This document shows, piece after piece, positions 7,794 to 39,729 of a DNA stretch of 64,000 nucleotides (position 1 is the stretch's first letter; each line of letters opens with the position of its first letter). Both the position numbers and the translations under genes were made by a program. The DNA is from an uncultured bacterium (GTDB taxonomy: Bacteria; Krumholzibacteriota; Krumholzibacteriia; JACNKJ01): positions 1,792,001-1,856,000 of the forward strand of contig CAVOFT010000001.1 in assembly GCA_963695095.1 (NCBI GenBank), read 5' to 3'. The notes below the pieces were generated by a model. The model saw only the letters and a program-made list of their open reading frames with translations, searched no databases and was not told the DNA's origin.

Positions 7794-8441
7794 CTAGTAG
7801 AGCGCCCGGATCCGGCTCATGTTGCTGGATTCCGTGGCGACGGTCTCCGTCGTGAAGATCCGGCCGGCCCAGCGCGTGTGATAGCCGGGGGGCACCTGCA
7901 CGCTCGCATTGGCGCTGATCCCGTTGAAGATCTGCCACTCGAGCATGGCCAGGTCGCCCAGTTCGGCCAGCCGGCTGCCGCCCGTGAAGGTGCAGTAGCC
8001 GTTGATGGTCCCGACGTCGGTCAGCGTGTTGAACAGGATGACCGCCGAGGAGAGGGTTCCGGTCAGGGCCGCCGTGCCGTCGCTGCCGGTGGCGATACCC
8101 GTGGCCGGGCTCGCCCCGTAGTCCAGGTCGAAGTCGGCATCCTCGTAGATCCCGATCGTGCCGCCGGCGAACTGATAGTTCTCGAAGATGCTCACCTGCG
8201 AGTAGCTCGTCAGCACCATGTCGGTGATGACCCAGGTGACCTCGTAACCCACGTAGTCGAAGTCGAAGGGGGGATTCTCCGGCTGCAGGGGCTCGAAGAG
8301 CCCGACGCCGCCGGCCATGTCCCCGGGTGTCGTCCCCTCGAGGTAGCCGTAGCCCTGCTTCAGGAAGTTGTAGATCGTGTCAGCGGAGGCAGGGACCGCC
8401 ATCAGGAGGAGGAGAACCACCCCGATGATCGCTTTTCTCAT
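7794..8441 (-). CDS. Secreted hypothetical protein with conserved C-terminal tail (..VATESSNMSRIRALY)
   Basis: Signal peptide MRKAIIGVVLLLLMAVPASA; AAGGAG RBS; paralog of 8481-9143. Confidence 0.85.
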   Translation of the reverse strand: MRKAIIGVVLLLLMAVPASADTIYNFLKQGYGYLEGTTPGDMAGGVGLFEPLQPENPPFDFDYVGYEVTWVITDMVLTSYSQVSIFENYQFAGGTIGIYEDADFDLDYGASPATGIATGSDGTAALTGTLSSAVILFNTLTDVGTINGYCTFTGGSRLAELGDLAMLEWQIFNGISANASVQVPPGYHTRWAGRIFTTETVATESSNMSRIRALY

Positions 8442-8480
8442 GCTGTGTCTCCTTAGCTGTAGTGTCACGGCCTCTGCTCC

Positions 8481-9143
8481 CTAGTAGAGGGCCTTGATCT
8501 GGCTCAGGCTGGAGTTATCGACTGCAATGTACTCCACCCAGACTTCGCCGTCGAGGGAGAGCTCGTAGCCGGCGGGGATGCCCGGATTGTGGGGCGGAAT
8601 CAGCGAGCCGCCGAAGGTGTAGGCTTCCTCGGTGAAGTAGGCGATCGCGCTGCCGCCCGTGAGCGAGATGTGTCCTTCGAAGACGCCCATGCCCAGATCG
8701 CGCCAGATCGTCATCGCGAAATCGGTGAAGGGCCCGGTAAGCCACGCCGTGCCGTCAAAGAAGCTCGGCGGCGGGGTGGGGATGCTCGGATACTCGTTCC
8801 AGTCCGAGTTCATGGCGGCATCCTCGTAGATGGCGAAGCTGCCGAGATTGTAGACGATCGTCGATACACCGGAGTTGACGATCTCGCCGTTGGAGATCAG
8901 CCCCGTGACGACGAGCGTGTACTCGAAGTCGGCGGGGAAGTAGGGGAGCGCGCCAGGGGCATCGATGCTGGTGACGCGCGAAATGAGGTGGATTTCGTCG
9001 CCGGGATCCGAGAACTCGAAGCCACCCACCTCGTAGCCGTATCCCGAGAAGTGGATGATGATGTTGCCTTGGGCCAGCAGCGACGTTGCTCCCAAGGCGA
9101 GTACCGCGGCAGCGGCAAGAGCAATCATGAGCGATTTCTTCAA
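8481..9143 (-). CDS. Secreted hypothetical protein with conserved C-terminal tail (..IAVDNSSLSQIKALY)
   Basis: TTG start after GGGAGG; signal peptide KKSLMIALAAAAVLALGATSLLA; shares GYGY, IYED, DGTAxLTG and TGGS motifs with its neighbour. Confidence 0.85.
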   Translation of the reverse strand: MKKSLMIALAAAAVLALGATSLLAQGNIIIHFSGYGYEVGGFEFSDPGDEIHLISRVTSIDAPGALPYFPADFEYTLVVTGLISNGEIVNSGVSTIVYNLGSFAIYEDAAMNSDWNEYPSIPTPPPSFFDGTAWLTGPFTDFAMTIWRDLGMGVFEGHISLTGGSAIAYFTEEAYTFGGSLIPPHNPGIPAGYELSLDGEVWVEYIAVDNSSLSQIKALY

Positions 9144-9331
9144 CAGACGACCTCCCGAGTTGAGCTGCTCCGTGAGCCTAGGCGAGGCGAGGGGTAGCAC
9201 CAGTTGTCTCGCTCGGCTCGCTGTTATCCACAGGCCGCAGGTCCGAAGCCAGGGCCGCCACATTGACGGCCAGCATCCAGAGCCACGTGCTCGATGAAAC
9301 CCAGAGAAAGCTCGCGGTGCACGCAGGGACG

Positions 9332-9360
9332 ATTATACCCTTGCCGCCGGCGCTGTACAA
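9332..9360 (-). promoter_or_regulatory. sigma70-type promoter for the tandem secreted-protein genes
   Basis: Minus strand TTGTAC-N17-TATAAT. Confidence 0.65.
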
Positions 9361-9538: not shown

Positions 9539-11305
9539 ATGCACCGCATGTTCATGTCAATCAAGCGGATGGGCCTGGGCTCCCTCCTGGCGACCGCGAG
9601 CCTCCTCTGCGCGGCCCCGGGCCTGGCCGCGCCCAGCTTCGTCGGCGCCCCCGACTACCTGCGCGCCTTTTCCCCCAACGGCGACGGCAGCCGGGACAGC
9701 TGCCGCATCCAGTTCAGCGCGGAAGGCCAGAGCCTGCCGCTGGATCTGATCCAGCTCGGGATCTACGCCGACGCCGCCGTGCCGCCCGGGCCGGCCTCGC
9801 TGCTCGCCGCTCCGGCCCCCGACAGCGTGAACACCAGCGGCCTGCTCAGCCGCGCCTACTACACCTGGCACGGCCGAGGCGGCGACGATAGCGCGGGCCA
9901 GCCGCTCTTACCGGACGGCTTCTACTATCTCCATATCATGCTTCAAGAGGGTAGCGATCCCAATCAACGCGCCAATTTCCTTTGGCTCAATCCGCCGATC
10001 CAGCTCGAGCTGAACACCGCCGGGCCAAGCCTCGCTGCCCTCGCGCTGGAGCCCTCCTTCTATTTCACGCCCCTGCAGAGCGACGCGGACACGCTGCTGC
10101 AGCTGCTCTTCTACTCGACCGACTTCGACACGCTCACGGATGAGGCCCGGGCCACCGTCAGCCGGCAGGGCGAGGGCGGCCTGTGGACGCCGATCGCCCA
10201 GATCGAGCGGGATCCTCGCTACTTCAACCCGAACGACGGCCTCGGGGGCTTCCGGCTGCTCTGGAACGGGAGGGACGGCGAGGGCGCCATCGTCGACGGC
10301 AGCTACCGCCTCGCCCTGCGCGTCGACGACGACGCGGGCAATCCCGGCGCGGACGGCCTGCTCGCCTGCAACCTCGACGCCAAGGCGCCCGCGTTCACCC
10401 TGGTCGACTTCGGCGGGCCCGTCGAGGGCGGAGTCAACTTCACGCTGCAGTCGGATTCCCTGCCGGATTCCCTGGTGGTCAAGCTCACCGACCGCAACGG
10501 CGTTGCCAGCTGCGTGGGCGCGCTGGACAGCACGGCCGTCTTCGATCAGGTCGGCCGGCTGCTGCCCGAGTCCGTCGCCGGTGAGCACTACTACGCCTTC
10601 GACCTGCCGGCGGGCTGGGGCGGGGCCGGCGATCCGCTCAGCACGCACCATTTCTACCTCGACGGCGCCGATCTCGCAGGCAATCTGCGCAGCGACCTCA
10701 ACAGTCCGATCAACATCAGCATTACCCTGGACGATCTGGCGCCCCCCGTGCCGAGCCTGGATCCGATGCCCAGCGAGCACATCCAGCCGGTGGTCACCCT
10801 TCGCGGCAGCTGCAGCGAGTTCGCGGTGACCATCGAGCTCGCCGAGGACGGCGCCGTCCGGGCGAGCACGGTCACCGACATCAACGGGCGTTTCATGATG
10901 CCGGTCCCCTTGAACCCGGGCAGCCACGTCTGGACCGCTAGCAGCGTTGACGGCGCCGGCAACCGCTCGGCGCCGTCGACGGGACTCACCCTCGTCTACA
11001 GCCCGGGGCCGGCGCAGCGGATCCCCGGCAGGCTGCGCGGCGGCGGCGACGAACCCTTCCAGATCAACACCCACGCGCCGGCGCGGGCCGTCATCCTGCG
11101 CTTCTACAGCCTGGAGGGCGAACTGCTGCGCCGGCTCGATGCGCAGGGCGGTCCCCTCCAGTTCAGCGCGAACTGGGACCTCAAGGACGCCGGCGGGCGA
11201 GCGATCATGGACGGCCTGTGCGTGCTCACCCTCGAGATCGACTACCTCAGCGGCGAACGCGATCTCGAGCGAAAGGTGGTGGCCGTTGTCCGCGCCACGC
11301 ACTAG
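9539..11305 (+). CDS. Secreted protein with multiple FlgD-Ig / T9SS-CTD-like domains
   Basis: Signal peptide; FSPNGDG, WHG..PDGFY, WNGRDG..DGSY, DxAGN Ig repeats, C-terminal WDLKDAGG...RKVVAVVR; exact start (9539/9548/9554/9569) uncertain. Confidence 0.8.
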   Translation: MHRMFMSIKRMGLGSLLATASLLCAAPGLAAPSFVGAPDYLRAFSPNGDGSRDSCRIQFSAEGQSLPLDLIQLGIYADAAVPPGPASLLAAPAPDSVNTSGLLSRAYYTWHGRGGDDSAGQPLLPDGFYYLHIMLQEGSDPNQRANFLWLNPPIQLELNTAGPSLAALALEPSFYFTPLQSDADTLLQLLFYSTDFDTLTDEARATVSRQGEGGLWTPIAQIERDPRYFNPNDGLGGFRLLWNGRDGEGAIVDGSYRLALRVDDDAGNPGADGLLACNLDAKAPAFTLVDFGGPVEGGVNFTLQSDSLPDSLVVKLTDRNGVASCVGALDSTAVFDQVGRLLPESVAGEHYYAFDLPAGWGGAGDPLSTHHFYLDGADLAGNLRSDLNSPINISITLDDLAPPVPSLDPMPSEHIQPVVTLRGSCSEFAVTIELAEDGAVRASTVTDINGRFMMPVPLNPGSHVWTASSVDGAGNRSAPSTGLTLVYSPGPAQRIPGRLRGGGDEPFQINTHAPARAVILRFYSLEGELLRRLDAQGGPLQFSANWDLKDAGGRAIMDGLCVLTLEIDYLSGERDLERKVVAVVRATH

Positions 11306-12230
11306 CCGAGCGGTCGGCGCCCTCCTGCTGGCCCTGGCCCTGCCCTCCTCGGCCGGCGCGGCCTCCCAGGGCGGCAGCTTCCGGCTCTGGCCGCACGCCG
11401 CTCGCGACCTGGCCATGGCCGAAGCCGCCACGCTCCTGGCGCCGGGCGCCGAAGCGCTCTTCAGCCAGCCGGCCTCGCTGGTCGGCATGGACGGCTGGGA
11501 GGCCGGGGCCAGCCTGCAGCGGCCCGCCGGCCTGCCGGGGCTCGCTCTCGGCTCCTTCGTCATCGGCGCCGGCAGCGGCCGGCGGCTGGCCGGCCCCGGG
11601 GAGCGGACGCCGACCAGCCGGCACGCCGCGGCGCTGGGCTACCAGCACCTGGGGGCGGAGCTGGCGGACGGCTCGGGCTGGGGCGAATGGACGGCGGCGC
11701 TGGGCCTGGCCTGGAGCCCGCAGCGCTGGCTCTCGCTGGGCGCGCGCGGGGACTACAGCCGCGGCGGCAGCGAGGACGGCGAGGATCGGGGCCGGGCCGT
11801 CGCCCTGAGTCTGGGCCTGCGGGCGGTCGTGCTCAATCCGGGCCTGGAGTTCGGCTGGCTGGCGGGAGACGTCCATCAGCGCTTTCACTGGGAGGCGACG
11901 CCGGAGGATCAGCGGCGGCGGGCGGGCAGCCAGGTCTTCGCCCTCGCCGCGCGGCTGCCCGGCCAGCTCAGCGCGGAGCTGCAGGGCCTCTGGCGCTACC
12001 GCAGCCTGGAGCGGGCGGCCCTCGGCATGGAGTGGCTGCCCTTGGGGCCGAGCTTCGCCCTGCGCGGGGGACTGCTGCTCCATCGCCGCATCGAGGAGAG
12101 CCTCAGCCCCGCCTTCGGCGCCGGCTTCGCCCGGGGCTCCCTGCGCATCGACTACGGCTTCCGCTTCGAGCGCGCCGAGGGGCCGGGCTCGCAGCACCGG
12201 CTTTCCCTGCGCTGGGTGGACGGGCGCTGA
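11286..12230 (+). CDS. PorV/PorQ-like outer-membrane beta-barrel protein
   Basis: AARDLAMAEAAT...AEALFSQPASL (PorV/FadL-type N-terminal motif); C-terminal GAGF..LRIDYGF...GSQHRLSLRW; TTG start inferred. Confidence 0.75.
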   Translation: MSAPRTSRAVGALLLALALPSSAGAASQGGSFRLWPHAARDLAMAEAATLLAPGAEALFSQPASLVGMDGWEAGASLQRPAGLPGLALGSFVIGAGSGRRLAGPGERTPTSRHAAALGYQHLGAELADGSGWGEWTAALGLAWSPQRWLSLGARGDYSRGGSEDGEDRGRAVALSLGLRAVVLNPGLEFGWLAGDVHQRFHWEATPEDQRRRAGSQVFALAARLPGQLSAELQGLWRYRSLERAALGMEWLPLGPSFALRGGLLLHRRIEESLSPAFGAGFARGSLRIDYGFRFERAEGPGSQHRLSLRWVDGR

Positions 12231-12811
12231 TGGCGGCGCGCCTCGCCCCGTGGGCCGCCGTTCTGCTCGCGGGCGGCTTCGCGCTGACGGGGAGCGGCCC
12301 GGCGGCAGCGAGCGCGGCCGCGCCGTCGGGCGCGGCGATCGAGGGCAGCTACCTCCTGGCGGGCGGCGGGGCCGCCTGGCTCTTCGAGCCCGGCCGCGGC
12401 TCGCGGAGTTTCGTGGCGGAGGCCCTCTTCCATCCCGATGCCGTGGGGCAGTTCTCGGCCCGCCTCGCCCGCCTGCGCCTGGGCCTCTGCCTGCGCTACA
12501 CTCGCAGCCTGGTGGTGGACCGGCTGGACAGCCAGGGCGCCGAAGTCGCCGTCCGCCGCGGGCTCGGGCGAGAGGGCCTGCGCCTGGCGCCCTTCGTGGA
12601 ACTGGGCCTGGGCCAGTACCGGGTGGATGACAGGCGCCAGGCCGGCGCCCGCTCGACCTGGAGCGCGGTCCTCGGCCTCGGGGCCGAGCGCTCGCTGGGC
12701 GGGCGCTGGCTCATTGCCGGAGCCGTCCAGCTGCGCAGCCTCGAGTTCGCCGAGGAGGGCCTCAGCCACGCGGGCTTCACTCTGACTCTTGGCGGAAGGA
12801 TCGATTCGTGA
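12230..12811 (+). CDS. Small outer-membrane beta-barrel protein
   Basis: Signal peptide; amphipathic strands (LAPFVELGLG, LGLGAE, HAGFTLTLG); coupled to both neighbours. Confidence 0.65.
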   Translation: MAARLAPWAAVLLAGGFALTGSGPAAASAAAPSGAAIEGSYLLAGGGAAWLFEPGRGSRSFVAEALFHPDAVGQFSARLARLRLGLCLRYTRSLVVDRLDSQGAEVAVRRGLGREGLRLAPFVELGLGQYRVDDRRQAGARSTWSAVLGLGAERSLGGRWLIAGAVQLRSLEFAEEGLSHAGFTLTLGGRIDS

Positions 12812-13608: not shown

Positions 13609-13624
13609 GCCGGCGAGTCGGCGC

Positions 13625-14830: not shown

Positions 14831-14838
14831 CCCGCGCC

Positions 14839-20584: not shown

Positions 20585-20604
20585 TTCCAGGCGCAAGGAG
20601 GGGC

Positions 20605-26406: not shown

Positions 26407-26408
26407 GG

Positions 26409-27460: not shown

Positions 27461-27487
27461 TCCCACTCCTTTGCGGATCCGTCCGGG

Positions 27488-30484: not shown

Positions 30485-30485
30485 C

Positions 30486-31724
30486 TCAGTTCACCTCGAG
30501 CTGGACGGGGGTCTTCAGCGTCGGATCGTAGTCGCGGATCTCGATCGCAATTTCCTGCGACCAGGGGTCGCCGTACTCGTCGAGCACGACCACGACGACG
30601 CGGTAGTTGCCCGTGGAGACGAGGCGGCCGTGGTCATCGCGGCCATCCCATGCGTAGGTCGCCGGCGGCTCCTTGCTGCCGCGCGCGCTGTGCACCGCGT
30701 TGCCGTCACCGTCGAAGATGGCGAGCTCCCAGCCGCGAGCCTTGCCGCGGAACTGGCTCTTGAGCTCCATCTCCACCTGGTTGCGCTCGCCGCTGGGCGA
30801 GAAGCGCGCGGTGTCGCTGCTGAGGCTGATCCCCGTCGCGACCCCGAAGCGCCAGGTGAAGCTGAGCCGGTGCGAGAGCCCGATCTGGGTATCCGCGACG
30901 GCGTAGTCGAGTTGCCAGGGGCCGTTGCGGTAGCCGCCGCCGGCGCCGTAGCTGCTGCGCTGGGTATCCCAGCCGCTGCGCAGGGCGAAGCCGCCGGGCA
31001 CCCAGAGCTCCCCGCCGGCCTGGAGGCCCAGCGGGGCATCGCCGACGCGGACGACGTCCAGGGTGGCCAGCATGCGGCCGCCCCGCAGGTGCAGCGCGCC
31101 GCCGGCGCGCAGGGTGAGGGGGAAGGTCTCCGCCGTCTTGTAGAGCGTGAGCGTCGGCGGCAGCAGGTTCTGCATCATGAGCCCGAAGCTGAAGAGCCGG
31201 TGCGGCCGGTTGAAGGCCGCCAGATCGAGGCCGGAGGCGCTGGCGCTGAAGCCGGCCAGGCTCTGATTCACGTTGCGGTAACTCGCGGCCAGGCTGAGAG
31301 CGCCGAAGCGGCGGGCGAAGCTGACCTGGATGGAGTTCTGCTGTTCGTCGAAGGTCTCGTCGCTGTCGGCGAGCAGGCTGCTGCGCTCGAAACCGCCCGA
31401 GCTGAGCAGTGCGCCGGCGAGGCCGAGGGTGCCGTAAGCGCCCAGGGGCTGGACGAGGCCCACGTACTCGTAGCGCGTGCCGGTGAGCAGCTCGGCGTGG
31501 AAGAAGAGCAGCTCGGTGCCGCGCACCTGCTCGAGTCCGGCGGGATTGGCGAAGAGGGCGCTGGCGTCGTCGGCCAGACCGGTGGCCGCGCCGCCCATCG
31601 CCAGGCCGCGCGCGCTGGCGGCGAAGCGCAGGAATGAACCGGGCAAGCCGCCCGCCGCCTCCTGGGCGAAGCCCGGACGGGCCGCAAGGAGCAAGAGCGT
31701 GCTGATCAGGATGCGATTTCTCAT
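30486..31724 (-). CDS. PorV/PorQ-like beta-barrel fused to a C-terminal FlgD-Ig domain
   Basis: SARGLAMGGA..GLADDASALFANPAGL; LDYA...LSHRLSF.W.F; then FSPSG...WDGRDDHGRLVSTGNY. Confidence 0.85.
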   Translation of the reverse strand: MRNRILISTLLLLAARPGFAQEAAGGLPGSFLRFAASARGLAMGGAATGLADDASALFANPAGLEQVRGTELLFFHAELLTGTRYEYVGLVQPLGAYGTLGLAGALLSSGGFERSSLLADSDETFDEQQNSIQVSFARRFGALSLAASYRNVNQSLAGFSASASGLDLAAFNRPHRLFSFGLMMQNLLPPTLTLYKTAETFPLTLRAGGALHLRGGRMLATLDVVRVGDAPLGLQAGGELWVPGGFALRSGWDTQRSSYGAGGGYRNGPWQLDYAVADTQIGLSHRLSFTWRFGVATGISLSSDTARFSPSGERNQVEMELKSQFRGKARGWELAIFDGDGNAVHSARGSKEPPATYAWDGRDDHGRLVSTGNYRVVVVVLDEYGDPWSQEIAIEIRDYDPTLKTPVQLEVN

Positions 31725-31741
31725 GATGCTTACCTCGCCGG

Positions 31742-34700
31742 CTACTTGATCACCGCGATTTTGCGCTGCAGCAGTTGGCCGCCCGTGCGAACGGTGCACA
31801 GGTAGCCGCCATTGCCGACCACCTCACCCCGGCCGTTCCTGCCGTCCCAGGGCACCTGGTAGGTCTGGCCGGCGCCGGTCGCCAGCTCGTGGGTCCAGAC
31901 CAGATTGCCGAAATGGTCGTGGATGCGCAGAACGGCGGTGCCGTCGGCGCGGGCGATGAAGAGGATGACGGTTTCCTCGCGGCCGGCCTGGAAGGGGTTG
32001 GGCCGATTGCTCAGCGGCCGCTCCGGCGCGAGCGCCGTGCCGAACACGAGCGTCACGTGCTGCACCGCCTCCCGATTGCCGTGGATGTCCGTGGCGTAGA
32101 AGCTGAGCGTATGTTCCCCGTACTCGCTGACGCCGAGATCGGCGAAGCGAAGCAAATCGGTGTAGACGCGCGCGGGCTGCGCCTCGCCCCCGAGATCGAC
32201 GTCCCAGTAGGTCTGGTCGACGCCGATCTCGCTGGAGCTGCTCAGGCGCAGCTCCGTCTCGGGGAGCAGGAGCAGGCCCTGGTCGGTGGCGGCGCTGCTG
32301 CCCAGCACGCTGAGCGTGGTGATCGGCGGTCCGATGACGGCGATTTCCACCACGCGCGTCGGCAGCGCGCGCACGGCCACCTGCACGATGATGTCCGCGC
32401 GGCCGCCCTCGAGCACGCGGACGCTGTTGCCGGCCGTGCCCAGGTTGCCGGTGAGGACGCTGTCGGCCGCGAGCTGGCCGTCACCAGCGATCATCGTGAA
32501 GGCCACGGCCTCGGCGAGGACGCGGTTGCCGAAGAGGTCGCTGACCGTGGCGGTCAAGGTGGCCGCCTGGCCCGGTTCGAGGGACAGCGGGTTCGCGGCA
32601 ATGGTCAGGCTGGCCGGAGGACCGGCGTGCACCTGGATCGGGTCGGAGAAGACCACCAGCCCCTGATCGTCGGTGATCTGCAGGTAGATGGCCTCGGCCG
32701 CGGTATAGGACTCGGTGATCGTGACCAGGCCCTGGGCGGTGGTGCCGCCGCTGAGCGCGAGGTTGCCCGCCCCCGGCTGGCCGGTGTTGTGGTTGACGGC
32801 CGCGATCGTGAAGCTGCGATCGTCGCTGGTCACGCGCTGGCCGGTGGACGTGTCCACCAGCTCGATGGTGACGGGGAAGGTGGCCGGCGGGCCGACCGTG
32901 GCGCTGACCGGCGTCGTCACCCGGTAGGCGACCGACTCCGGCACCATGTGGATGATGCCGCTGGTGCTACTGCGGCCGCGCCCGTCGCTGACGCGAATGA
33001 CGATGTCCTCGACGACCGGGTAGGTCTGACCGACGATGGAGAGCTCGCCGGCGGCGAGCACGCCGGCCGTGACGCCGAGCGCGCCCAGCGCCGGGCCCTG
33101 ATTGGGCGCCAGGGCGGTCAGCGTGACTTCCTCGTTGGCAACCGTGATCAGGGTGCCGTCATTGCGCACCAGGCGCACCGTCATCGGCCAGCTGGCCGGG
33201 GGGCCGGCCTGGGCCTGAGCGGGCACGCTGATCTCGTAGTGGGCCTCGCCGACCGGGATGTCCACGGCGTGCGCGAGTACGACCGGATTCGCCAGGTCCT
33301 CGACGAAGAGGGTGACGTTGCCCTGGTTGTGCAGGATCAGCTCGTAGTCGCCGACGCCGCCGATGAGGGCCGTGCCGTTGTTGGTCGGGTTGCCGGCCGT
33401 CACGCTGCCCTCGGAACTGCTCAGCGTGATCGTGCCCGCGTTGAAGCCGTCGTTGAGGTTCCAGTACTGGTCCGTGGCCCGCACCTGCACCATGAAGGGC
33501 ACCTCGGCCTGCTGCAGGCGCGGCGTGCCCGTCTTGCCGGTGGGGGAGCTGGCGCCCGGCTGCGGCGTTTCGCCGGGGGCGATGAGCTGCAAGCGCTTGT
33601 AGCCGTCGGGGCGCATCACGATGCTGTTGGAGGTGCCCACCACGCCGCGCGCATCGTGAACGCGCAGGTAGATGTGGCCGGCGCCGGTGTAGGTCTGGTT
33701 GAAGTTGGCGACGCCGTCGGCGAGCACGCCGCTGCCGACGCTCCAGGCGCCGACGCCGAGCTGGCCAGTCTGGCCCGAGTAGACGTCCACGCTGAAGATC
33801 GTGTCCTGGCTGGCGACGACGAGGCCCGTGCCGAGGTCGAGCAGGCGCACCGTGACGGGGAAGTCTGCGGGTCCGCCCACCGTGGCCGTGTCGGGCACGG
33901 TCAGCGCGTAGCCGAGGCCGCCGGGCTGCATGGTGAGGATGGGCGAGTAGCCGACGCGCCCGTAGTCGTCCATCACGCGCAGGATGATGGACTCGACCCG
34001 GTCGTACTGCTGGCCGTTGATGACGCGCACGCCCGCGGCGAGCGTCTCGGCGGTGATGGCGAGATTGCCGGCCGCCACGCCGAAGTTGGGGTAGAGGGCC
34101 GCGATCGTGAAGCTCTGATTCGCGTCCGGGGCGGGGTCGCCCGTCACCGGATCGATCATCTCGACGATCATCTGGAAGCCCGGGTAGCCCGTGTGCGGCG
34201 AGAGATCGGGCAGGGTGAGCTGGAACTCGTAGCCGGGATTGACCGGGATCGACACCGTCTGGCCGGGCGGGGCCGGGTTGGCCGCGTCCCAGACGCTGAG
34301 GTCCACCTGGCCCTCGCTGTCCAGATAGATCTGGAACGTGCGGCGGCCGTTGACGAAGGGCGCGCCCATGTCGCTAGGGTTGTCGGCGCCCACCGAGTTG
34401 TCCGTGGCGCTGAAGGTGAGGGCGCCGCCGTTCGTGGCCGCGGCCAGGTTCCAGAACTGGTCCACGGCCCGTACGGTGACCGGGAAGGGGCTGCGACTGC
34501 GCTGGGTATCGGGCACGCCCTCCTTGCCGGTGGCCAGGAAGGCCTCGATGCCCGCGCGCACTTCCTCGCCGGGGGCGAGGAGCTGCAGGCGCTTGTAGCC
34601 ATCGGCGGCCACGCTGAAGATGGCGCTGTTGCCGATGAGGGCGTGGTCGTCCACGACGTGCAGGTAGACGTTCTCGGCGCGGCTGTAGGACTCATTGAAG

Positions 34701-37700
34701 ATCGCGTAGCCGGCCTCGAGGCTGGCCTGCGTGATGGCGGTCATGCCGAGGCCGGGAGCGCCCGTGGCGGCGGCCCAGATGGCGATCGTCAGCTCCCGGT
34801 CGGCGTCGATGCGGGTGCCGGTGTCCACGTCGCGCAGCTCCACCGAGACCGGGAAGCTGGCCGGCGGACCGGCGACGGGATTCGCACCCTGGCCCAGCGC
34901 GACGCGGTACTCCATGCCGTTCGTCAGCATGTGGATCGGCTGGCTGTAGGCCAGGCGCCCGGCGTTGTCGCTGACGCGAATGATGATGTCTTCCACGGTG
35001 CCGTAGGCCTGCGCGGGCAGGTTGCCGACGCCGCCGTTCAGCGTGACCTGGCCCACCCAGAGCACGCCGCTGGCCGGATCGAGGTTGCTCTTGAAGGCGG
35101 TGAGCTGCACGGTGTGGTTCGCGGCGCCCTCGGGATTGCCGAGGGAGTCGACCAGGCTCACCGCCATCGCGAAGGTCTGCGGCGGGCCGACGCGCGCGCT
35201 GTCGGGCGCCTGGATCAGGTACTGCGAACCCTGCTGCAGGTTGATGGTCACCGCCTGGGGCAGGATGTCGAGGTTGTCGAGGGGATTGGCCTCGACGGAG
35301 ACCGACCCGCTAGCGATGAGGAAGATCGGGAAGCTGATGCTGCCGCCGGCCAGATTCTGGCCCTGGTTGGGCGGGTTGATGGCGTCGAGGGCGCCGTCGC
35401 TGCTCGTGAGCCGGACGTGCTCGTCGTTGTCCGGCACGAGGTTCCAGTACTCGTCGACGCTGCGCACGATGACGGGGAACTGCAGGCTCGTCGTCTGCAG
35501 GGCGGGCGTGCCGAGCTTGCCGTCGGACTCGAAGCCGCCGGGGTTGGGCGTCTCGCCCGGTGCCACGATCTGCAGGCGCACGAAGGGGCCGGGCTCGATG
35601 GCGACGACGGAAGTGTCGGTCCGGGCCGGCCAGGTGACATCACTCACCACCAGCGGCTGATCGCCGGCGCTGCGGAAGTAGAGCTGGGCGCTGGCGCTGC
35701 CCGCGGGCGGGAGCACCAGCGGATTGGCGCTGATCATCTGGCTGTAGCCGACACTGCTCAGGACCACGGTCGGCTGCGTCGCCACCTGGTTGAAGTAGCC
35801 GTCGACGGCCAGGATGGCGGCCGTGATCGTCTCGCCGGCCGTGTGCGGGTAGGGCACGCCGGCCTTGCCGATGCCGATCCCCGGCGTGTGCAGCTCGCCG
35901 GGCAGGAGCAGGAGCAGGTCGCTGTAGGCGCCGGGCAGGACGTCGAAGGGATTGCTCTGGCCGGTGCGGGCGTAGGCGGATTCGGTGGCCGTCAGCACCA
36001 CGTCCTGGCCGGCCTTGTAGACGCGCAAGCTGCCGCGCCAGACGCCGTGCTCGCTGCCGGGCCAGGTGCCGCCGTCGGCGAAATCGACGCTGGCCGGTAG
36101 CAGCACGTCGGCGCCGTGGCTGACCGTGAGCAGCGCCGTCCCCTGGTAGGTGGGGATGTGGTTGCCGAACTGGTCGCGGGCGATGATCGTCAGGTCGTTG
36201 AGCGCCTGTCCGGCCACGAAATCGGGGATGGGCGAGAGCGGATCGTTCGCGCTCGGGTTGCTCAGCGCGTTGATGCCGAGCGTGAAATGGTCGACGACGC
36301 CGGCCTGGAGGGGCACGGCCGTGAAAGCACTCTGGCTGCCGTCGAGGTCGCGCGCCTGTACGGTCTGGAAGTTGGGGTCGGCCAGGGTGCGCAGGGTGAC
36401 CGTGTAGTTGCCGGTGGGCGTGGACTGCTGCTGGCCGCTGGCGGGCAAGGTGGCCGCCGCGTCCGAGCTGCTGAACTGGAGGCGCACCGGGAAGGTGGGG
36501 TCGTTGGTCGCGACCGGGTTCCAGAAACCGTCCGTCGCCACGACGCCGACCGCGAAGGGCACGCCGGCGTCCTGGAAGTTGGGCGTGCCCAGCTTGCCGT
36601 CCGCCTCGATGCTGTCGAAGATGCCCGGGGCGAGCGTCTCGCCGGGGGCCACCACGGCCATGCGCGCATAAGCCGCCGGCGATACCTGGATGGCGCTGCT
36701 CGTGCCGCTGACGCCCTGGGAACTGGTGATCGTCAGGCTGCGGCTCCCGCGCGTGCGGAAGATGACGCTGATGGTCGTGGCGTTGGTGACCGTGAAGTTG
36801 TTGTCGGCGTAGGCGGGGAGCTGGAAGTAGCCGTCGCCGCTGCTCGCGCCCACGAAGTGATTGCCGCCCACCATGTTGAAGTAGCGATCCACGGGTCGCA
36901 CGACGACCGGGGTCACGGTGAATCCGGCCGTCGTCGGATTCGGCGTGCCCAGGTTGCCCGTGAAGCCGGGCGTGCTCAGGCCCGGCGCGTAGGTCTGCCC
37001 GGGCAGGGTGACGAGAAAGCTCTCCAGCGGCCCCGGGTCCACCTGGAAGTAGCCGCTGGTCGAGGCGGCGCTGCCGCCGCTGTCGCAGACCAGCGCGCAG
37101 GAGAAGAAGCGTCGCGTGACCTGGATGTCGGTGTCCAGCTCGCCCGCCGTGAAGACGTTCGTGCTGCTGAGCAGGTAGTCCTCGCTCTCCTCGGCGCCGT
37201 AGCGCACGCGCAGGGATACCGCGCCGTTGAAGGGGAAGCGATTCTCATAGAAGTCGCGCGCGGTGATGCGCACGTCGAAGGGCTGGGTGGTCACCTGCAC
37301 GTCCAGGGTGTCCCAGATCGCGTAGTTGAACTCGAAGTGGTCGAGGCTCTGCGGCTGGACCGTCAGGTAGCTGTTGCTGACATCCGTGATGGAGCCGCTG
37401 GCCGTGGCGCTAACGCTGTGCGTAGCGGCGGTGATCAGCCGGAAGACCTGATCGGCGAGCATGTTGTCGCTCATCAGGCCGCCCGGGGGCAGCTGCACCG
37501 CGGCGTGGCCGTCCGAACTGGCGTAGCTGACCGTGAAGGGCAGGCCGGGGTCCGTCTCCCGCACCGGATTCCACCAGGGGTCCACCGCGTAGACCGTGCC
37601 GCTGAAGGGGATGCCGGCGAGCTGCGCCGTGGGGCTGCCGCTCTTGCCGGGCGGCACGCCGGGAGTGAGCGTTTCGCCCGGGAGCACGATCACGATGCCC

Positions 37701-38452
37701 TCCAGCGCGGCCGGCCAGAGCGGGGTCACCGCGGCCGTGCCCTGGGGGTAGGCGCTCTGGCCCGGGTAGATGCGGCCCCCCGTCGCCGTCAAGGTGTTCG
37801 ACTGGGTGAGCTGGTGCGTGCCCAGGAACTGCACGGGCACCACGGCCTGGCCGTGGTCGAAGAGGCTGCCGCTGATGAGCTGGCTGGGACCGGGTCCCAG
37901 GTTGCCCACCGCCGCGCGCAGGGTGACGTCGTCGGCGAAGTTGGCGATGGCGACGCCGTAGGTGTCCACGGCGGTGAGCGTGATGGGGATGTCCTGGCCC
38001 ACCCACTTGTCGCCGCCCGGAACGCCGATGTTGAAGTGGTCGACGAAGGGGTAGCAGTTGATCCACTCGTAGCCCTTGGGCGCGGTGATGTCGTCGGCCG
38101 CGCGGGCCTCGAGCTGGATGCCGCTGCCGGGGGCATTGAAGACGACGTTGTCGAACTGGACCTCGCCGTTGACGATGTAGCGCGCCGGGGGCAGCGTGGC
38201 ATTGTGCGTCGCGTAGAGCTCGAAGAGCAGGGCGTTGACGCTGGTGTCCACCGTGCCGCCGGCGTTCATGGCGCGCACGCGGACGCTGAAGCCCTGTCCG
38301 ATGGTGACCGCCGGGTTGCCGTCGACCATCACGGCATCGACGACGGTGAGTTCCGTGTAGCTCCAGGCAGCGGCGCCGCCCGCGGCCAGGGCCGTCATCA
38401 GGAAGGCCAGGAGCGCGGCCTGCACGGGGCGAGCCGGGATGAACTGCGGCAT
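31742..38452 (-). CDS. Giant secreted Ig-like repeat protein (~2236 aa) with a T9SS/FlgD-like C-terminal domain; putative adhesin
   Basis: Signal peptide; seven PG[EQ]...G.P....G....V...D..[WF]N repeats; six GPP..FP.... repeats; C-terminus NRPNPF...WDGRN..G..V.NGGY...RKIAVIK. Confidence 0.88.
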   Translation of the reverse strand: MPQFIPARPVQAALLAFLMTALAAGGAAAWSYTELTVVDAVMVDGNPAVTIGQGFSVRVRAMNAGGTVDTSVNALLFELYATHNATLPPARYIVNGEVQFDNVVFNAPGSGIQLEARAADDITAPKGYEWINCYPFVDHFNIGVPGGDKWVGQDIPITLTAVDTYGVAIANFADDVTLRAAVGNLGPGPSQLISGSLFDHGQAVVPVQFLGTHQLTQSNTLTATGGRIYPGQSAYPQGTAAVTPLWPAALEGIVIVLPGETLTPGVPPGKSGSPTAQLAGIPFSGTVYAVDPWWNPVRETDPGLPFTVSYASSDGHAAVQLPPGGLMSDNMLADQVFRLITAATHSVSATASGSITDVSNSYLTVQPQSLDHFEFNYAIWDTLDVQVTTQPFDVRITARDFYENRFPFNGAVSLRVRYGAEESEDYLLSSTNVFTAGELDTDIQVTRRFFSCALVCDSGGSAASTSGYFQVDPGPLESFLVTLPGQTYAPGLSTPGFTGNLGTPNPTTAGFTVTPVVVRPVDRYFNMVGGNHFVGASSGDGYFQLPAYADNNFTVTNATTISVIFRTRGSRSLTITSSQGVSGTSSAIQVSPAAYARMAVVAPGETLAPGIFDSIEADGKLGTPNFQDAGVPFAVGVVATDGFWNPVATNDPTFPVRLQFSSSDAAATLPASGQQQSTPTGNYTVTLRTLADPNFQTVQARDLDGSQSAFTAVPLQAGVVDHFTLGINALSNPSANDPLSPIPDFVAGQALNDLTIIARDQFGNHIPTYQGTALLTVSHGADVLLPASVDFADGGTWPGSEHGVWRGSLRVYKAGQDVVLTATESAYARTGQSNPFDVLPGAYSDLLLLLPGELHTPGIGIGKAGVPYPHTAGETITAAILAVDGYFNQVATQPTVVLSSVGYSQMISANPLVLPPAGSASAQLYFRSAGDQPLVVSDVTWPARTDTSVVAIEPGPFVRLQIVAPGETPNPGGFESDGKLGTPALQTTSLQFPVIVRSVDEYWNLVPDNDEHVRLTSSDGALDAINPPNQGQNLAGGSISFPIFLIASGSVSVEANPLDNLDILPQAVTINLQQGSQYLIQAPDSARVGPPQTFAMAVSLVDSLGNPEGAANHTVQLTAFKSNLDPASGVLWVGQVTLNGGVGNLPAQAYGTVEDIIIRVSDNAGRLAYSQPIHMLTNGMEYRVALGQGANPVAGPPASFPVSVELRDVDTGTRIDADRELTIAIWAAATGAPGLGMTAITQASLEAGYAIFNESYSRAENVYLHVVDDHALIGNSAIFSVAADGYKRLQLLAPGEEVRAGIEAFLATGKEGVPDTQRSRSPFPVTVRAVDQFWNLAAATNGGALTFSATDNSVGADNPSDMGAPFVNGRRTFQIYLDSEGQVDLSVWDAANPAPPGQTVSIPVNPGYEFQLTLPDLSPHTGYPGFQMIVEMIDPVTGDPAPDANQSFTIAALYPNFGVAAGNLAITAETLAAGVRVINGQQYDRVESIILRVMDDYGRVGYSPILTMQPGGLGYALTVPDTATVGGPADFPVTVRLLDLGTGLVVASQDTIFSVDVYSGQTGQLGVGAWSVGSGVLADGVANFNQTYTGAGHIYLRVHDARGVVGTSNSIVMRPDGYKRLQLIAPGETPQPGASSPTGKTGTPRLQQAEVPFMVQVRATDQYWNLNDGFNAGTITLSSSEGSVTAGNPTNNGTALIGGVGDYELILHNQGNVTLFVEDLANPVVLAHAVDIPVGEAHYEISVPAQAQAGPPASWPMTVRLVRNDGTLITVANEEVTLTALAPNQGPALGALGVTAGVLAAGELSIVGQTYPVVEDIVIRVSDGRGRSSTSGIIHMVPESVAYRVTTPVSATVGPPATFPVTIELVDTSTGQRVTSDDRSFTIAAVNHNTGQPGAGNLALSGGTTAQGLVTITESYTAAEAIYLQITDDQGLVVFSDPIQVHAGPPASLTIAANPLSLEPGQAATLTATVSDLFGNRVLAEAVAFTMIAGDGQLAADSVLTGNLGTAGNSVRVLEGGRADIIVQVAVRALPTRVVEIAVIGPPITTLSVLGSSAATDQGLLLLPETELRLSSSSEIGVDQTYWDVDLGGEAQPARVYTDLLRFADLGVSEYGEHTLSFYATDIHGNREAVQHVTLVFGTALAPERPLSNRPNPFQAGREETVILFIARADGTAVLRIHDHFGNLVWTHELATGAGQTYQVPWDGRNGRGEVVGNGGYLCTVRTGGQLLQRKIAVIK

Positions 38453-38579
38453 CGAAGGCCTCCACAGGGCGATGCGGTTGGAACCTCGCGCATCCGGGTC
38501 GGCGAGGAGTGACCACCTGCTTCCAGCGCTGCCCGCTGGCGGCGACGAGGCCGCGGAACGGGCGCTCGACCGGCTGGAC

Positions 38580-38595
38580 TGCAACAGGTATGCCA
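38580..38595 (-). promoter_or_regulatory. sigma54 promoter of the giant-protein/Ton operon
   Basis: Minus strand TGGCAT-ACCTG-TTGCA, near consensus, ~130 nt upstream of the start. Confidence 0.75.
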
Positions 38596-38814
38596 TCGGG
38601 GAAGTCGCGTTCTTGCAAGGCCTTGCGCGGGATGATTCGGAGGGATCAGAAGTGCCAGGGTCGGCTGGGGCCCGCTGACGCCGCCCTCGCCGCCGGCGGT
38701 GCCGCTCTCCATTTGCACGATGGCGCCGAATCCTCTGGACCCGCGGCTGCATCCGATCGAGCGTGCGTGGGCGCGGCGGCCGCCCGCGCTGGGCCCTATC
38801 GAGAAGGAAGCCTC

Positions 38815-39729
38815 ATGCCGACACCGTCGCTTGCCGTCTTGGGACGCCTGCTGCTCGCAGCCGGCCTGCTGCTGGCCGGCGGACCGGCCGCCGCCGCTCT
38901 GATCCAGGCGCCGGGAGCGGCGGGCTCGCTGCAGGGGGCCCTGGACAGCGCCGTCGCCGGCGATGTCGTGCTCGTCGCGGCGGGGCACCATGCGGAGGGC
39001 GCGGCGCTGGTCCTGCGCGAGGGGATCACCCTGCGGGGCGCGGGCAGCAAGCCCGCGGACACGGTGCTGTCAGGGGCCTACATGCACCAGATCCTCAGCG
39101 TCGGCGGCGAGGGCTCGGTCGGCATCGAGAATCTCACGCTGGCGGACGGCTTCGCCCTCAGGGGCGCCGGTCTTTCGGTGTCCGGCGCCGAGCTGCGTCT
39201 CGATGGCGTGCACTTCCTGCGCAACGCTGCGGCCGGCGACGGCGGCGCCGTCTACGCCGTCGGCGCGGGCCTGCAGATCACGAATTGCCTCTTCTTCGCC
39301 AACTATGCCTCCAGCGGCAGCGGCGCGGCCCTGCACATCCAGGGCTCGGGGCCGGCGGGCAGCCTGCAGCGCATCGAGTACTCGACCTTCGCCGCCAATG
39401 CCGGTTGCTGCGGCGGGCGCTCGCTGGTCCTGGCCGACTGCCAGGTGGAGATTTCGCACAGCATCCTGGAGGACGTGGCCTGCCTGGCGGGCGGCGCGCC
39501 CGTGATGAGCTGCAACAACGGCAGCGTCTGCGGCACGGACGCGGGCGGCAACTTCATCGCCGACCCGCGCTACTGCGGCTTTGAAGAGGCGGATTGCCGC
39601 CTGGAGCCCGACTCGCCCTGCCTGGCCGTCAACAACCCCGAGTGCGGCCAGATCGGCGCCTTCGGCGCCTGCGCGCTGACGGCCGTCGCGCCCAGCAGCT
39701 TCAGCGCCATCAAGTCGCTGTACCGCTAG
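38815..39729 (+). CDS. Secreted parallel beta-helix (pectin-lyase-fold / Pmp-like) protein with conserved C-terminal tail (..TAVAPSSFSAIKSLYR)
   Basis: Signal peptide; GD.V.V..G; FxxN and GGA repeats; GNFIADP..C...L...SPC. Confidence 0.8.
   Translation: MPTPSLAVLGRLLLAAGLLLAGGPAAAALIQAPGAAGSLQGALDSAVAGDVVLVAAGHHAEGAALVLREGITLRGAGSKPADTVLSGAYMHQILSVGGEGSVGIENLTLADGFALRGAGLSVSGAELRLDGVHFLRNAAAGDGGAVYAVGAGLQITNCLFFANYASSGSGAALHIQGSGPAGSLQRIEYSTFAANAGCCGGRSLVLADCQVEISHSILEDVACLAGGAPVMSCNNGSVCGTDAGGNFIADPRYCGFEEADCRLEPDSPCLAVNNPECGQIGAFGACALTAVAPSSFSAIKSLYR

Follow-up and report, generated by a model that had tools for sequence, protein, structure and literature searches.

A short C-terminal tail shared by many exported-looking proteins of Krumholzibacteriota and related phyla: a candidate localisation tag

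Three genes in a 64,000-nucleotide stretch of DNA from an uncultured member of the Krumholzibacteriota (the window) encode proteins that end in the same short tail. What such a shared ending does is the question raised by this locus. The original prediction saw in it a minimal export or surface-anchoring signal, carried as a portable module by unrelated secreted proteins. Here we describe the three genes, the other carriers of the tail in the same genome (G000, 3.64 Mb) and its range among lineages, and weigh what the tail may be for.

The three open reading frames (ORFs) and their ends are all as first described. Tail protein 1 (7794..8441, minus strand) is about 215 aa long from an in-frame ATG at 8441 of ORF 7794-8468, with a GTG at 8468 as the alternative start. 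It ends ...TVATESSNMSRIRALY and has no Pfam family. Its tail is the last 15 codons (7797..7841, minus strand; ...VATESSNMSRIRALY), and the stop at 7794-7796 follows immediately; R replaces K at position -4, which makes it one of 2 such tails among the 66 of the genome. Tail protein 2 (8481..9143, minus strand; ORF 8481-9263) has 220 aa from a TTG at 9143, matches no Pfam or NCBIfam family and ends ...YIAVDNSSLSQIKALY. Its last 15 codons (8484..8528, minus strand; ...IAVDNSSLSQIKALY) form row L035 of the tail alignment. Protein 2 is a paralogue of protein 1, with 28% identity (E 2e-12). Tail protein 3 (38815..39729, plus strand; ORF 38509-39729, ATG at 38815) has 304 aa and ends ...LTAVAPSSFSAIKSLYR, the tail being the last 16 codons (39679..39726, plus strand; ...TAVAPSSFSAIKSLYR). 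It had been called an unrelated beta-helix protein, and it is one: it belongs to a right-handed beta-helix family, with a weak Pfam Beta_helix match (E 0.0042), is unrelated to proteins 1 and 2, and clusters with 11 further beta-helix tail proteins (12 tail-bearing members in the genome). Its tail is placed after the Cys...Cys motif of the family, where homologues elsewhere carry a T9SS C-terminal domain (CTD). Each of the three proteins has a hydrophobic, signal-peptide-like N-terminus, and none matches a T9SS type A CTD model (TIGR04183, PF18962 or PF13860) anywhere along its length.

The tail genes also lie divergent from two PorV-like loci, as had been noticed, with an operon of a CTD protein and a PorV/PorQ-family barrel at both. 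Divergent from tail genes 1 and 2 is the gene for a 588-aa Big_13 protein (g1237; 9539..11305, plus strand) with a FlgD_ig-type, T9SS type-A-like CTD. The PorV/PorQ-like ORF at this locus (10914..12230, plus strand) probably has its true start downstream of 11305, and its match is weak and confined to the C-terminal third (NF033709, 23.6 bits, E 3.3e-5). Divergent from tail gene 3 is a surface-protein-like ORF of 2336 aa with a FlgD_ig CTD (31742..38752, minus strand). The barrel of this locus (30489..31823, minus strand; Pfam UPF0164) has a fused FlgD_ig and passes the NF033709 cut-off of 90 with 91.2 bits. The window's single rhomboid looks GlpG-like (46 bits); with rhombosortase it reaches 17.8 bits, where the cut-off is 84.

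The tail is a feature of the whole genome. It stands at the end of 66 ORFs, about 2.5% of called genes (66/~2,533), with the consensus T-[AP]-[TV]-E-x-x-[ST]-[WF]-[SG]-x-[IV]-K-[SA]-L-Y. A tight pattern, [ST]-x-[IVL]-[KR]-[AS]-L-[YF], was scanned in 29,146 stop-to-stop ORFs of at least 60 aa. It occurs 34 times within two residues of the stop and 8 times elsewhere; since its internal rate predicts 0.12 terminal hits, the tail is far above chance. Two checks had been proposed, strict C-terminal position and co-occurrence with signal peptides, and both came out in favour of a sorting role. A 22-residue HMM (at least 12 bits, genome-wide) gave 64 matches within four residues of the stop and 3 further inside, and these 64, with two added by the pattern, make up the 66 tails. 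By a crude hydrophobicity rule of our own, 63 of the 66 proteins have a signal-peptide-like N-terminus; 8 are lipoprotein-like. Across the 66 tails, S or G at -7 and I, V or L at -5 are found in all, K at -4 in 64 (R in 2), S or T at -9 in 61, Y at -1 in 60 and L at -2 in 59. Judged from the aligned residues, conservation at these positions is far in excess of what general amphipathicity would need. The tail aromatic is followed by no residue in 54 proteins, one in 8, two in 3 and three in 1. The region upstream of the tail helix is acidic.

Portability, too, is borne out. Without their tails the 66 proteins fall into 40 BLAST clusters, and in L038 the tail is placed after a complete plastocyanin-type domain. 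Pfam, applied to 37 of the 66, assigned Beta_helix to 8, PPC, DUF7901 and Copper-bind to 1 each, and no family to 23. The fold of one tail-bearing family is that of a cohesin (Z 12.8 to 2vo8_A), and a CTD-bearing protein of 1051 aa contains two cohesin-fold modules like those of that family. Homologues with source names are called 'hypothetical', or are named for the passenger domain only or by a generic JGI label. The tail itself is covered by no characterised model, in keeping with the original prediction: NCBIfam models match 0 of 40 tails at E<=10, and Pfam models match 1 of 40, spuriously (Matrilin_ccoil, E 0.098).

We compared the tail with known C-terminal signals. The tripartite signals (LPXTG, PEP-CTERM, GlyGly-CTERM, PGF-CTERM, MYXO-CTERM and relatives) are likewise short, C-terminal, portable, multicopy and lineage-restricted, and follow a low-complexity Thr/Ala/Pro-rich linker. 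They consist of a motif, a TM helix and a basic cluster, whereas the tail has neither a hydrophobic segment nor a basic cluster and ends 0-3 residues past its motif in the 40-tail alignment and the 66-tail logo; on this architecture we reject the class. Like the tail, outer-membrane beta-signals place an aromatic residue last, or nearly so, in an exported protein. The barrels of G000, however, show alternation in their last residues (for example ...HRFSFEMLF and ...HRWAIRVDF), whereas the tail is predicted to be helical and sits on beta-helix, cohesin-fold and cupredoxin domains, not on barrels. At 180 degrees its hydrophobic moment reaches its minimum of 0.22, where shuffles average 0.29, and this class is also rejected. 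A PDZ-type or carboxylate-anchored ligand does not fit either, as the distance to the free carboxylate varies (0-3 residues in G000, and up to 15 and 39 among the 143 tails located in the best 150 of 322 database hits). In cellulosome-type assemblies, diverse proteins are plugged into a scaffold through dockerin modules, likewise helical and appended at the C-terminus, and a cohesin-fold tail family exists. Dockerins, however, are calcium-binding modules of about 70 residues, and the tail helix has about 9.

The closest likeness to set beside the tail is the T9SS type A CTD (Por_Secre_tail/FlgD_ig-type). Both are strictly C-terminal, occur in dozens of copies per genome on Sec-exported carriers of many folds, take the same position on homologous passengers and are found in the same lineages. 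The CTD, however, folds into a seven-strand Ig-like domain of roughly 70-100 residues (PMC4804311), while the tail consists of a linker and about 8 further residues. It has no match to PF13860, PF18962 or any NCBIfam family, and is rejected as a type A CTD on that ground. An Ig-like beta-sandwich is likewise rejected on AlphaFold2 models of two unrelated families. These show a confident core and then, over the last ~20 residues, a low-pLDDT linker and a terminal helix of 7 residues, which stands free of the core and has low confidence itself (pLDDT 50-67). The tail had been described as a short amphipathic segment without a TM helix, far shorter than a T9SS CTD and unlike LPXTG, PEP-CTERM or GlyGly-CTERM. 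Its alignment, free of hydrophobic stretches and basic clusters, agrees on all but amphipathicity, which is borne out weakly: at 100 degrees this low-confidence helix has a moment of 0.37, and shuffles have 0.32 +/- 0.14, with 34% of them reaching 0.37. The moment peaks at 120 degrees (0.52).

The range of the tail is broad among related phyla. It occurs in 146 of 151 genomes of the window's own phylum, Krumholzibacteriota, and in 32 of 41 Eisenbacteria; one Coatesbacteria genome has 17 matches. Variants are found in Fermentibacteria and Poribacteria, the latter keeping [ST]WGxIK with variable residues past K (SLK, AQR, SRK). The '(S/T)WGxIKxLY' ends that the original prediction ascribed to FCB candidate phyla are real. 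Among controls, neither tail model found the tail in any of 61 Bacteroidota; 1 of 61 genomes of a second control phylum has it, and 0 of 5 unrelated genomes at E<=0.001. A search of 1.84 billion representatives gave 322 tail hits. Among the best 150 of these the pattern located the tail in 143, and it lies within six residues of the C-terminus in 136, one extra residue being commonest (69/143). One metagenomic lipoprotein (P0232) has four tail-like repeats in tandem.

What, then, could the tail do? We infer a candidate export or anchoring signal from the fact that the tail is strictly C-terminal, goes with signal peptides, changes places with CTDs and has the lineage range described above. We consider it about an even call that the tail serves to localise its carriers, as a portable tag confined to the C-terminus and read by docking onto a conserved envelope protein. 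The tail, some 16-22 residues long, begins with a flexible linker rich in Thr, Ala and Glu (T-[AP]-[TV]-E-x-x); a Ser/Thr cap follows, and then a predicted helix of about 8 residues, [WF]-[SG]-x-[IV]-K-[SA]-L-Y, sometimes with 1-4 residues more. Its carriers are mostly small, Sec-exported-looking proteins of many unrelated folds. A conserved envelope protein of T9SS-bearing lineages would dock the helix by its invariant basic residue, the small residues at -7 and -3 and the W, I, L and Y around them. Docking would fix the protein at a defined site of the envelope and so provide a non-covalent alternative to CTD-dependent sorting. We likewise infer that something reads the tail, that it does so by docking, and where tail proteins finally reside. 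The four tandem repeats of P0232 make a binding module a better fit than a one-shot translocation signal.

An alternative is that the tail is itself an outer-membrane export signal, defining a minimal third class of T9SS cargo that is recognised by SprA or a PorV/PorQ-family shuttle paralogue and secreted or displayed without an Ig-like CTD. G000 has a complete T9SS core (SprA 424 bits, PorU 438 bits, PorV adjoining PorU) and at least 6 further PorV/Q paralogues. An SprA-like match is present in G000 and in three further sets of tail-bearing or related genomes, 5/5, 41/41 and 5/5 (the last set with two matches that fall short of the curated cut-off), thus in all tail-bearing genomes tested; it was absent from the named control genomes (0/14). 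This co-occurrence is confounded by shared ancestry because most of these phyla are closely related. The tail and the CTD also trade places. Past the same Cys...Cys motif, some homologues of the beta-helix protein L003 have the tail and others a FlgD_ig/Por_Secre_tail CTD, and for 20 of the 66 G000 tail proteins half or more of the body aligns with a paralogue that bears a CTD. On homologous passenger domains the two are interchangeable at the same position; the swap is equally compatible with tail versions that could remain periplasmic. CTD proteins number 141 in G000 against the 66 tail proteins, with a median length of 687 aa against 224 aa. Adjacency of their genes is modest. Among 50 mapped tail genes (16 of the 66, unmapped, were left out), a CTD gene is the immediate neighbour of 9 (random mean 5.2) and lies within two genes of 18 (random mean 9.6, random maximum 18).

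Flavobacterium type B signals have dedicated shuttle paralogues whose genes stand beside the cargo (PMC12618676). At the two tail loci of the window, and at a further locus (g185 to g187), a PorV/Q-like barrel and a CTD gene are found next to the tail gene. This proximity was, however, spotted after the fact and involves 3 of some 8 barrels. The copy number of PorV-like genes does not follow the presence of the tail, and the tail is absent from the Bacteroidota surveyed, the reference T9SS phylum. A helix of about 9 residues shares nothing with the folded seven-strand domain that is the known T9SS signal (PMC4804311). Tandem tails and the 0-4 variable residues past the motif suit a docking peptide better. 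We regard direct reading by the T9SS as unlikely. A broader proposal we offer tentatively, as more likely wrong than right: the tail may be the address label of an undescribed sorting route in the T9SS-bearing candidate phyla (Krumholzibacteriota, Eisenbacteria, Coatesbacteria, Fermentibacteria and Poribacteria), in which a ~9-residue helix, and no folded domain, brings small folded proteins, dozens in each cell, to the surface. They would either enter the T9SS through a shuttle paralogue, independently of a CTD, or ride along with CTD cargo.

The docking proposal calls for a reader, and we looked for one around and across the genomes. Neighbour-family enrichment around the G000 tail genes gave nothing significant, the best being SpoIIE phosphatases (p 0.008, uncorrected). 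Profiling against PorV-like and protease families, suggested with the original prediction, gave no lead: counts of PorV-like barrels and of Peptidase_C25 paralogues showed no difference between Eisenbacteria with and without A1 tail matches, a contrast that is weak because 4 of the 5 'negative' genomes show weak A3 matches. The cohesin-fold family is not a general receptor, at the level of sequence detection, since none of 41 Eisenbacteria yielded it and 32 of these genomes have tails.

PorU links the new C-terminus of CTD cargo to a surface acceptor. By analogy, the tail could be a substrate for C-terminal processing or transpeptidation, in which a Peptidase_C25 (gingipain/PorU-family) paralogue cuts at the basic -4 residue, frees the last 3-7 residues and perhaps joins the new C-terminus to such an acceptor. 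The constant K or R at -4 suits this reading, as do the 6-22 C25 paralogues per genome of tail-bearing lineages. In G000, G008, G010, G025 and G163 the cohesin-fold tail-gene arrays adjoin a C25+FlgD_ig gene, a second gingipain-like gene (L133) adjoins three tail genes, and in Poribacteria the residues past K vary as those of a leaving group would. Within the window's phylum, however, these residues are strongly conserved, as the near-constant L and Y of the 66 tails show. C25 copy number does not track the tail, the synteny is limited to one cargo family, and only 2 of 10 C25-like loci of G000 lie within 3 kb of a tail gene. We regard processing as very unlikely.

We give similarly little credence to an in-plane membrane anchor, in which the helix would lie in a leaflet interface, either of the outer membrane (inner leaflet) or of the inner membrane (periplasmic face), and retain soluble periplasmic proteins. 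C-terminal amphipathic helices of some penicillin-binding proteins are anchors of this kind. The AlphaFold2 helix on its flexible linker, with Trp/Phe and Tyr as flanks and Lys within, would suit such a role; the plastocyanin-type cupredoxin cargo is typically a periplasmic electron carrier, and the repeats of P0232 would increase avidity. The helix has, however, just ~8 residues, its moment hardly departs from that of shuffles, and the upstream region is acidic. Lipid-binding helices usually lack near-invariant specific residues, so the K, L, Y and small residues kept across phyla would be unusual. Finally, a stability, oligomerisation or turnover element (a C-terminal cap or periplasmic-protease site) spread by recombination among secreted-protein genes would agree with the searches that found no machinery and with the tolerated extra residues, but is very unlikely, as one cap for 40 unrelated folds that replaces a T9SS CTD at the same position is hard to explain, AlphaFold2 leaves the tail unpacked on the core, and the tail is conserved in at least four or five phyla.

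LPXTG, PEP-CTERM, GlyGly-CTERM and the T9SS CTD each led to a sorting machine, and surface proteomes can now be read from sequence through them. The tail described here is on dozens of proteins per genome across whole uncultured phyla and is invisible to Pfam and NCBIfam. With a model of it, a large class of proteins of Krumholzibacteriota, Eisenbacteria and their relatives could be recognised as belonging to the envelope or surface. It is short enough for trial as a portable tag. The swap between tail and CTD offers a concrete entry to the sorting of exported proteins in T9SS-bearing bacteria outside Bacteroidota. If the T9SS does read the tail, the view of its signal as necessarily a folded domain would change.

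The window (contig C1, positions 1792001-1856000) belongs to a genome, G000, of 3.64 Mb and 70% G+C assembled in 2 contigs. Three of the window's proteins end in a common tail, whose consensus in the genome is [WF]-[SG]-x-[IV]-K-[SA]-L-Y behind a linker rich in threonine, alanine and glutamate. Tail protein 1 (7794-8468, minus strand) ends in ...TVATESSNMSRIRALY, tail protein 2 (8481-9263, minus strand) in ...YIAVDNSSLSQIKALY and tail protein 3 (38509-39729, plus strand) in ...LTAVAPSSFSAIKSLYR. The original prediction had given these same three ends, and they are identical to those of the translated ORFs. Behind each of its start codons, at 8441, 9143 and 38815, come a short run of basic residues and a hydrophobic core. 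Tail protein 1 is a paralogue of tail protein 2, at 28% identity (E 2e-12). Tail protein 3 had been taken for a beta-helix, and is one of the right-handed type; its Pfam match is weak (E 0.0042), but it is a member of a 12-protein beta-helix BLAST cluster.

We scanned 29,146 stop-to-stop ORFs of at least 60 aa from G000. A strict end pattern found 50 ORFs, and a 22-residue hidden Markov model (HMM) was trained on these and used with a cut-off of 12 bits. At or above that cut-off, 64 matches lie no more than four residues from the stop, against three that lie deeper, as expected of a strictly C-terminal element. Two more were found by pattern, giving 66 tail proteins. A tight version of the pattern matches at 34 ORF ends and at 8 positions elsewhere; from the internal rate, 0.12 terminal matches would be expected. 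The aromatic residue closes the protein in 54 of the 66 and is followed by one residue in 8, two in 3 and three in 1. Putative export signals accompany the tail as predicted: a crude in-house hydrophobicity rule finds a signal-peptide-like N-terminus in 63/66, and 8/66 have a lipobox-like site. The proteins have a median length of 224 aa (range 50-460). The shortest, a 50-aa ORF at C1:736712-736906 on the minus strand, is a signal peptide with little beyond the tail (...DEPLAASSFSAIRALY); it may encode a free tail peptide or else be spurious.

Conservation is concentrated in the last residues. Counting backward from the aromatic residue, position -1 is tyrosine in 60/66, -2 is leucine in 59/66 and -3 is serine or alanine in 59/66. 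Position -4 is lysine in 64/66 and arginine in the remaining 2, -5 is always isoleucine, valine or leucine (66/66), and -7 is always serine or glycine (66/66). Upstream of these, tryptophan or phenylalanine occupies -8 in 51/66 and serine or threonine -9 in 61/66. The linker is looser, with glutamate at -12 (29/66), threonine or valine at -13 (53/66), alanine at -14 (39/66) and threonine at -15 (43/66). What stands out is the invariant basic residue, together with small residues at both -7 and -3, a spacing of four.

The tail extends well beyond this genome. Its closest relatives with a name are Candidatus Krumholzibacteriia (PorV 84% identical, other proteins 51-52%), so that G000 probably belongs to Krumholzibacteriota. 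A 26-column tail alignment, A1, matched 41/41 relatives of G000 at E ≤ 0.01. At E ≤ 0.001 it matched 146/151 genomes in a sample of the phylum itself, several families of which have dozens of matches per genome, and 32/41 Eisenbacteria, or 31/40 once the unpublished genome G178 is left out. At the same threshold it matched 0/61 Bacteroidota, 0/5 unrelated genomes and 1/61 in the phylum of a Desulfovibrio MAG, where the lone match is interrupted by an in-frame TGA. At E ≤ 0.01, one Coatesbacteria genome had 17 matches.

Searching 185,579 species genomes with a degenerate DNA pattern (W-G-x-I-K-[AS]-[LF]-Y-stop) gave at least 72 loci. Among the 72 listed, 45 are open frames of at least 56 aa with a true stop, 4 read through via TGG and 23, in short frames, look like chance; the 49 in the first two groups include no named isolate. 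The residue ahead of the tryptophan, which the pattern leaves unspecified, is serine or threonine in 42/45 of the open frames listed. By record title these frames come from Eisenbacteria, Krumholzibacteriota, Poribacteria, Coatesbacteria, Fermentibacteraceae/Sabulitectum, UBP1 and others. The cross-phylum alignment built from the pattern loci, A3, matched 0/61 Bacteroidota and 35/41 genomes of the window's own phylum, in a sample drawn around genome G264 that also takes in G025, G008, G002 and G007. In single genomes searched with A3 at E ≤ 0.01 there were 8 matches in Poribacteria, 4 in Fermentibacteria and 5 in a MAG labelled 'Gemmatimonas', and weak A3 matches occur in 19/31 Poribacteria. 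Records labelled Fibrobacteraceae (e.g. locus L046 of G264) fall in the window's GTDB phylum and do not count as evidence of the tail in Fibrobacterota. Poribacterial tails (L137-L142) read ...VEPxDKLTTTWGxIK followed by SLK, AQR, SRK or SLY, and lie 0-2 residues from the stop of signal-peptide proteins of 220-290 aa. They differ in the last three residues, which leaves [ST]-W-G-x-I-K as the common core.

When 1.84 billion protein representatives were searched by profile, 322 matched at E ≤ 0.001. In 143 of the best 150 of these the motif could be located by pattern; it ends at the last residue in 26, one residue before it in 69, two in 30, three to six in 11 and seven or more in 7. The 7 missed by pattern among the best 150 comprise 6 C-terminal variants and one false match to a tandem repeat (P0229). 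Three representatives (P0235, P0252 and P0288) have a copy inside the protein as well as one at its end, and look like fusions of two tail proteins. In P0232, a lipoprotein-like metagenomic protein of 272 aa, four tail-like repeats stand in tandem at the C-terminus.

The carriers are diverse, in keeping with the portable module originally proposed. Clustered by BLAST (E ≤ 1e-4) without their last 22 residues, the 66 proteins form 40 groups, the largest being the 12-member beta-helix cluster and the next a 6-member family. Pfam was run on 37 of the 66, giving Beta_helix in 8, PPC, DUF7901 and plastocyanin-type Copper-bind in 1 each, 3 weak matches, and no family in 23. In the cupredoxin (L038) the Pfam domain stops at residue 119 of 137, ahead of the tail. 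AlphaFold2 models were made for two unrelated families. The model of the 6-member family (A2) has a mean pLDDT of 89.6, with residues 25-165 above 92; its final three 10-residue blocks fall to 67, 63 and 50, with a helix at 184-190. The beta-helix model (A5) has a mean of 93.0, final two blocks of 60 and 59, and a helix at 357-363. In both, the tail is predicted to be a flexible linker and a 7-residue terminal helix unpacked against the core.

On every sequence criterion testable here, the tail behaves like a sorting tag. Its function we infer, and we put at about even the chance that it is a docking tag for an envelope partner, which would read the tail by docking. This reading is favoured by the residue-level conservation, the few trailing residues tolerated, the four tandem tails of P0232 and the predicted free helix.

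The architecture is unlike any described class of C-terminal sorting tags. Tripartite signals require a basic cluster as well as a segment that spans the membrane (10.1101/2023.06.07.544157), and for type IX secretion systems (T9SS) the signal consists of a folded Ig-like domain (PMC4804311); the tail matches neither. That no characterised sorting HMM covers it was confirmed with 40 tails, 0/40 of which match any NCBIfam model at E ≤ 10; their single Pfam match is spurious. The three whole window proteins gave no sorting-domain match either. Names of homologues are equally bare. All but one of the 70 homologues of L009, a member of the 6-member family, among the matches listed are named 'hypothetical protein', the exception bearing the generic JGI label 'opacity protein-like surface antigen'. 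Beta-helix homologues are named for the passenger domain or by the generic JGI label 'predicted outer membrane repeat protein'. An ESM Atlas search with the tail region found only 'hypothetical protein' clusters (scores 0.89-0.90). We found no description of the tail in the literature on the motif, on T9SS in these phyla or on sorting-signal discovery, supplementary sorting-domain tables lying outside that scope; passages of PMC11495043 mention Krumholzibacteriota and not the tail.

The genome has a T9SS core: SprA (424 bits against TIGR04189), PorU (438 bits against NF033707) and a PorV that adjoins PorU (Pfam PorV E 4.6e-20). At least 6 further PorV/Q-family barrels are present. An in-house HMM finds 141 proteins (median 687 aa) with a FlgD_ig-type T9SS C-terminal domain (CTD). 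Beside the 66 tail proteins, these give G000 two classes of C-terminal module. Behind the same Cys...Cys motif, some homologues of the beta-helix protein L003 have the tail and others a FlgD_ig/Por_Secre_tail CTD, and for 20/66 tail proteins a paralogue with a CTD aligns to half of the body or more. Judged from such alignments, tail and CTD are interchangeable on homologous passengers. Every tail-bearing genome tested has a SprA-like match (5/5, 41/41 Eisenbacteria and 5/5, two of the matches under the curated cut-off), and 0/14 named control genomes have one; this nesting of the tail within SprA-bearing genomes is suggestive and confounded by kinship. Adjacency was tested for the 50 tail genes that could be mapped to gene calls, leaving out 16. 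A CTD gene is the immediate neighbour of 9/50 (random mean 5.2) and lies within two genes of 18/50 (random mean 9.6, random maximum 18), only modestly above random. The tail might be a minimal signal for export through the T9SS, with a shuttle paralogue as its reader; type B signals and their PorP/SprF shuttles would be the analogue (PMC12618676). The Ig-like fold of the known T9SS signal is not matched by the tail, and we regard such a minimal signal as rather unlikely.

Around the window's tail genes the gene order is as originally described: both tail loci lie divergent from a block with a CTD protein and a PorV/Q-family barrel, an arrangement found a third time beside a tail gene at g184-g187 of G000. 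The block at 24656-38752 (minus strand) is operon-like, in the order TonB, ExbD, ExbB, TPR protein, PorQ-like barrel and FlgD_ig-CTD protein. The TPR protein, at 27491-30490, is 1000 aa and YbgF/BamD-like (PorW/SprE 86.7 bits, under cut-off), the barrel is fused to a FlgD_ig domain and the CTD protein is 2336 aa. It is unusual for a proton-motive-force transducer to stand beside a barrel of shuttle-like type and a giant adhesin-like cargo. Immediately upstream of tail genes 1 and 2, a large ORF at 3885-7691 (plus strand; 943 aa from TTG at 4860) has a Big_1 domain and, in its translation, a HEFQH zinc-metalloprotease-like motif, and neither CTD nor tail. A rhomboid protease with a DUF6576 tail (12631-13608, plus strand) lies 3.5 kb from the same two genes; it was rejected as a sorting enzyme, scoring as GlpG-like and not as a rhombosortase. 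An ordinary flagellar block at 51376-63867 (plus strand), with rod proteins, FlgA, FlgH, FlgI, FlgN, FlgK, a FlgL-like protein and two tandem flagellin genes of ~500 aa each, indicates that the organism is probably motile.

A search for a reader of the tail gave nothing convincing. Recurrent neighbours of tail genes are CTD proteins and cytoplasmic regulators (SpoIIE, HD-GYP, aldehyde dehydrogenase), with no family significantly enriched. Neither the number of PorV-like paralogues, nor that of Peptidase_C25 proteins, nor the presence of SprA separates Eisenbacteria with A1 matches from those without. The A1-negative group is not clean, because 4/5 show weak A3 matches. Peptidase_C25 paralogues number 2-22 per genome (G000, G008, G010, G025, G160, G163 and 41 Eisenbacteria); most are 800-2000 aa and several have a FlgD_ig CTD. 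The tail could serve as a processing site for such an enzyme at the invariant lysine, which we hold to be improbable.

One tail family has a fold of interest. The 6-member family (proteins of ~190 aa) is predicted to have a cohesin fold: its model aligns with 2vo8_A in VIA-align over 123 residues (Z 12.8, rmsd 2.7), the top 17 rows are all cohesins, and Foldseek gives E 4.8e-5. A PDB sequence-profile search found nothing, so the relationship is detected by fold comparison only. In G000 three of the genes (L019, L009 and L026) lie at C1:2529256-2531464; others are L001 and L030. Arrays of 2-3 such genes stand beside a Peptidase_C25+FlgD_ig gene in G000, G008, G010, G025 and G163, which span three families of the phylum, and a 1051-aa CTD protein of G000 (g2350) contains two cohesin-fold modules. 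These features are a hint that a candidate phylum of Gram-negative type may have a surface assembly based on cohesins, and the arrays suggest the idea of the tail as a 'mini-dockerin'. As a general tail receptor the family was rejected, because the cohesin-fold domain alone (A7) matches 0/41 Eisenbacteria.

The tail could also lie in the plane of the membrane as an anchor. It had been described as an amphipathic segment; the helix is indeed predicted, but the amphipathicity is weak, with a hydrophobic moment of 0.37 at 100 degrees against 0.32 +/- 0.14 for shuffles (0.52 at 120 degrees, 0.22 at 180 degrees), and we think an anchor of this kind has little likelihood. There is a similarly slim chance that the tail is a non-sorting element. 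A PDZ-like reading was rejected since the distance to the carboxylate varies, and an outer membrane protein beta-signal on periodicity and carrier folds.

The tail is thus a real, abundant and lineage-wide C-terminal module, without a Pfam or NCBIfam model and not found in print by our searches. It is immediately testable, and with a model of it much of the exported proteome in several uncultured phyla would gain an annotation.
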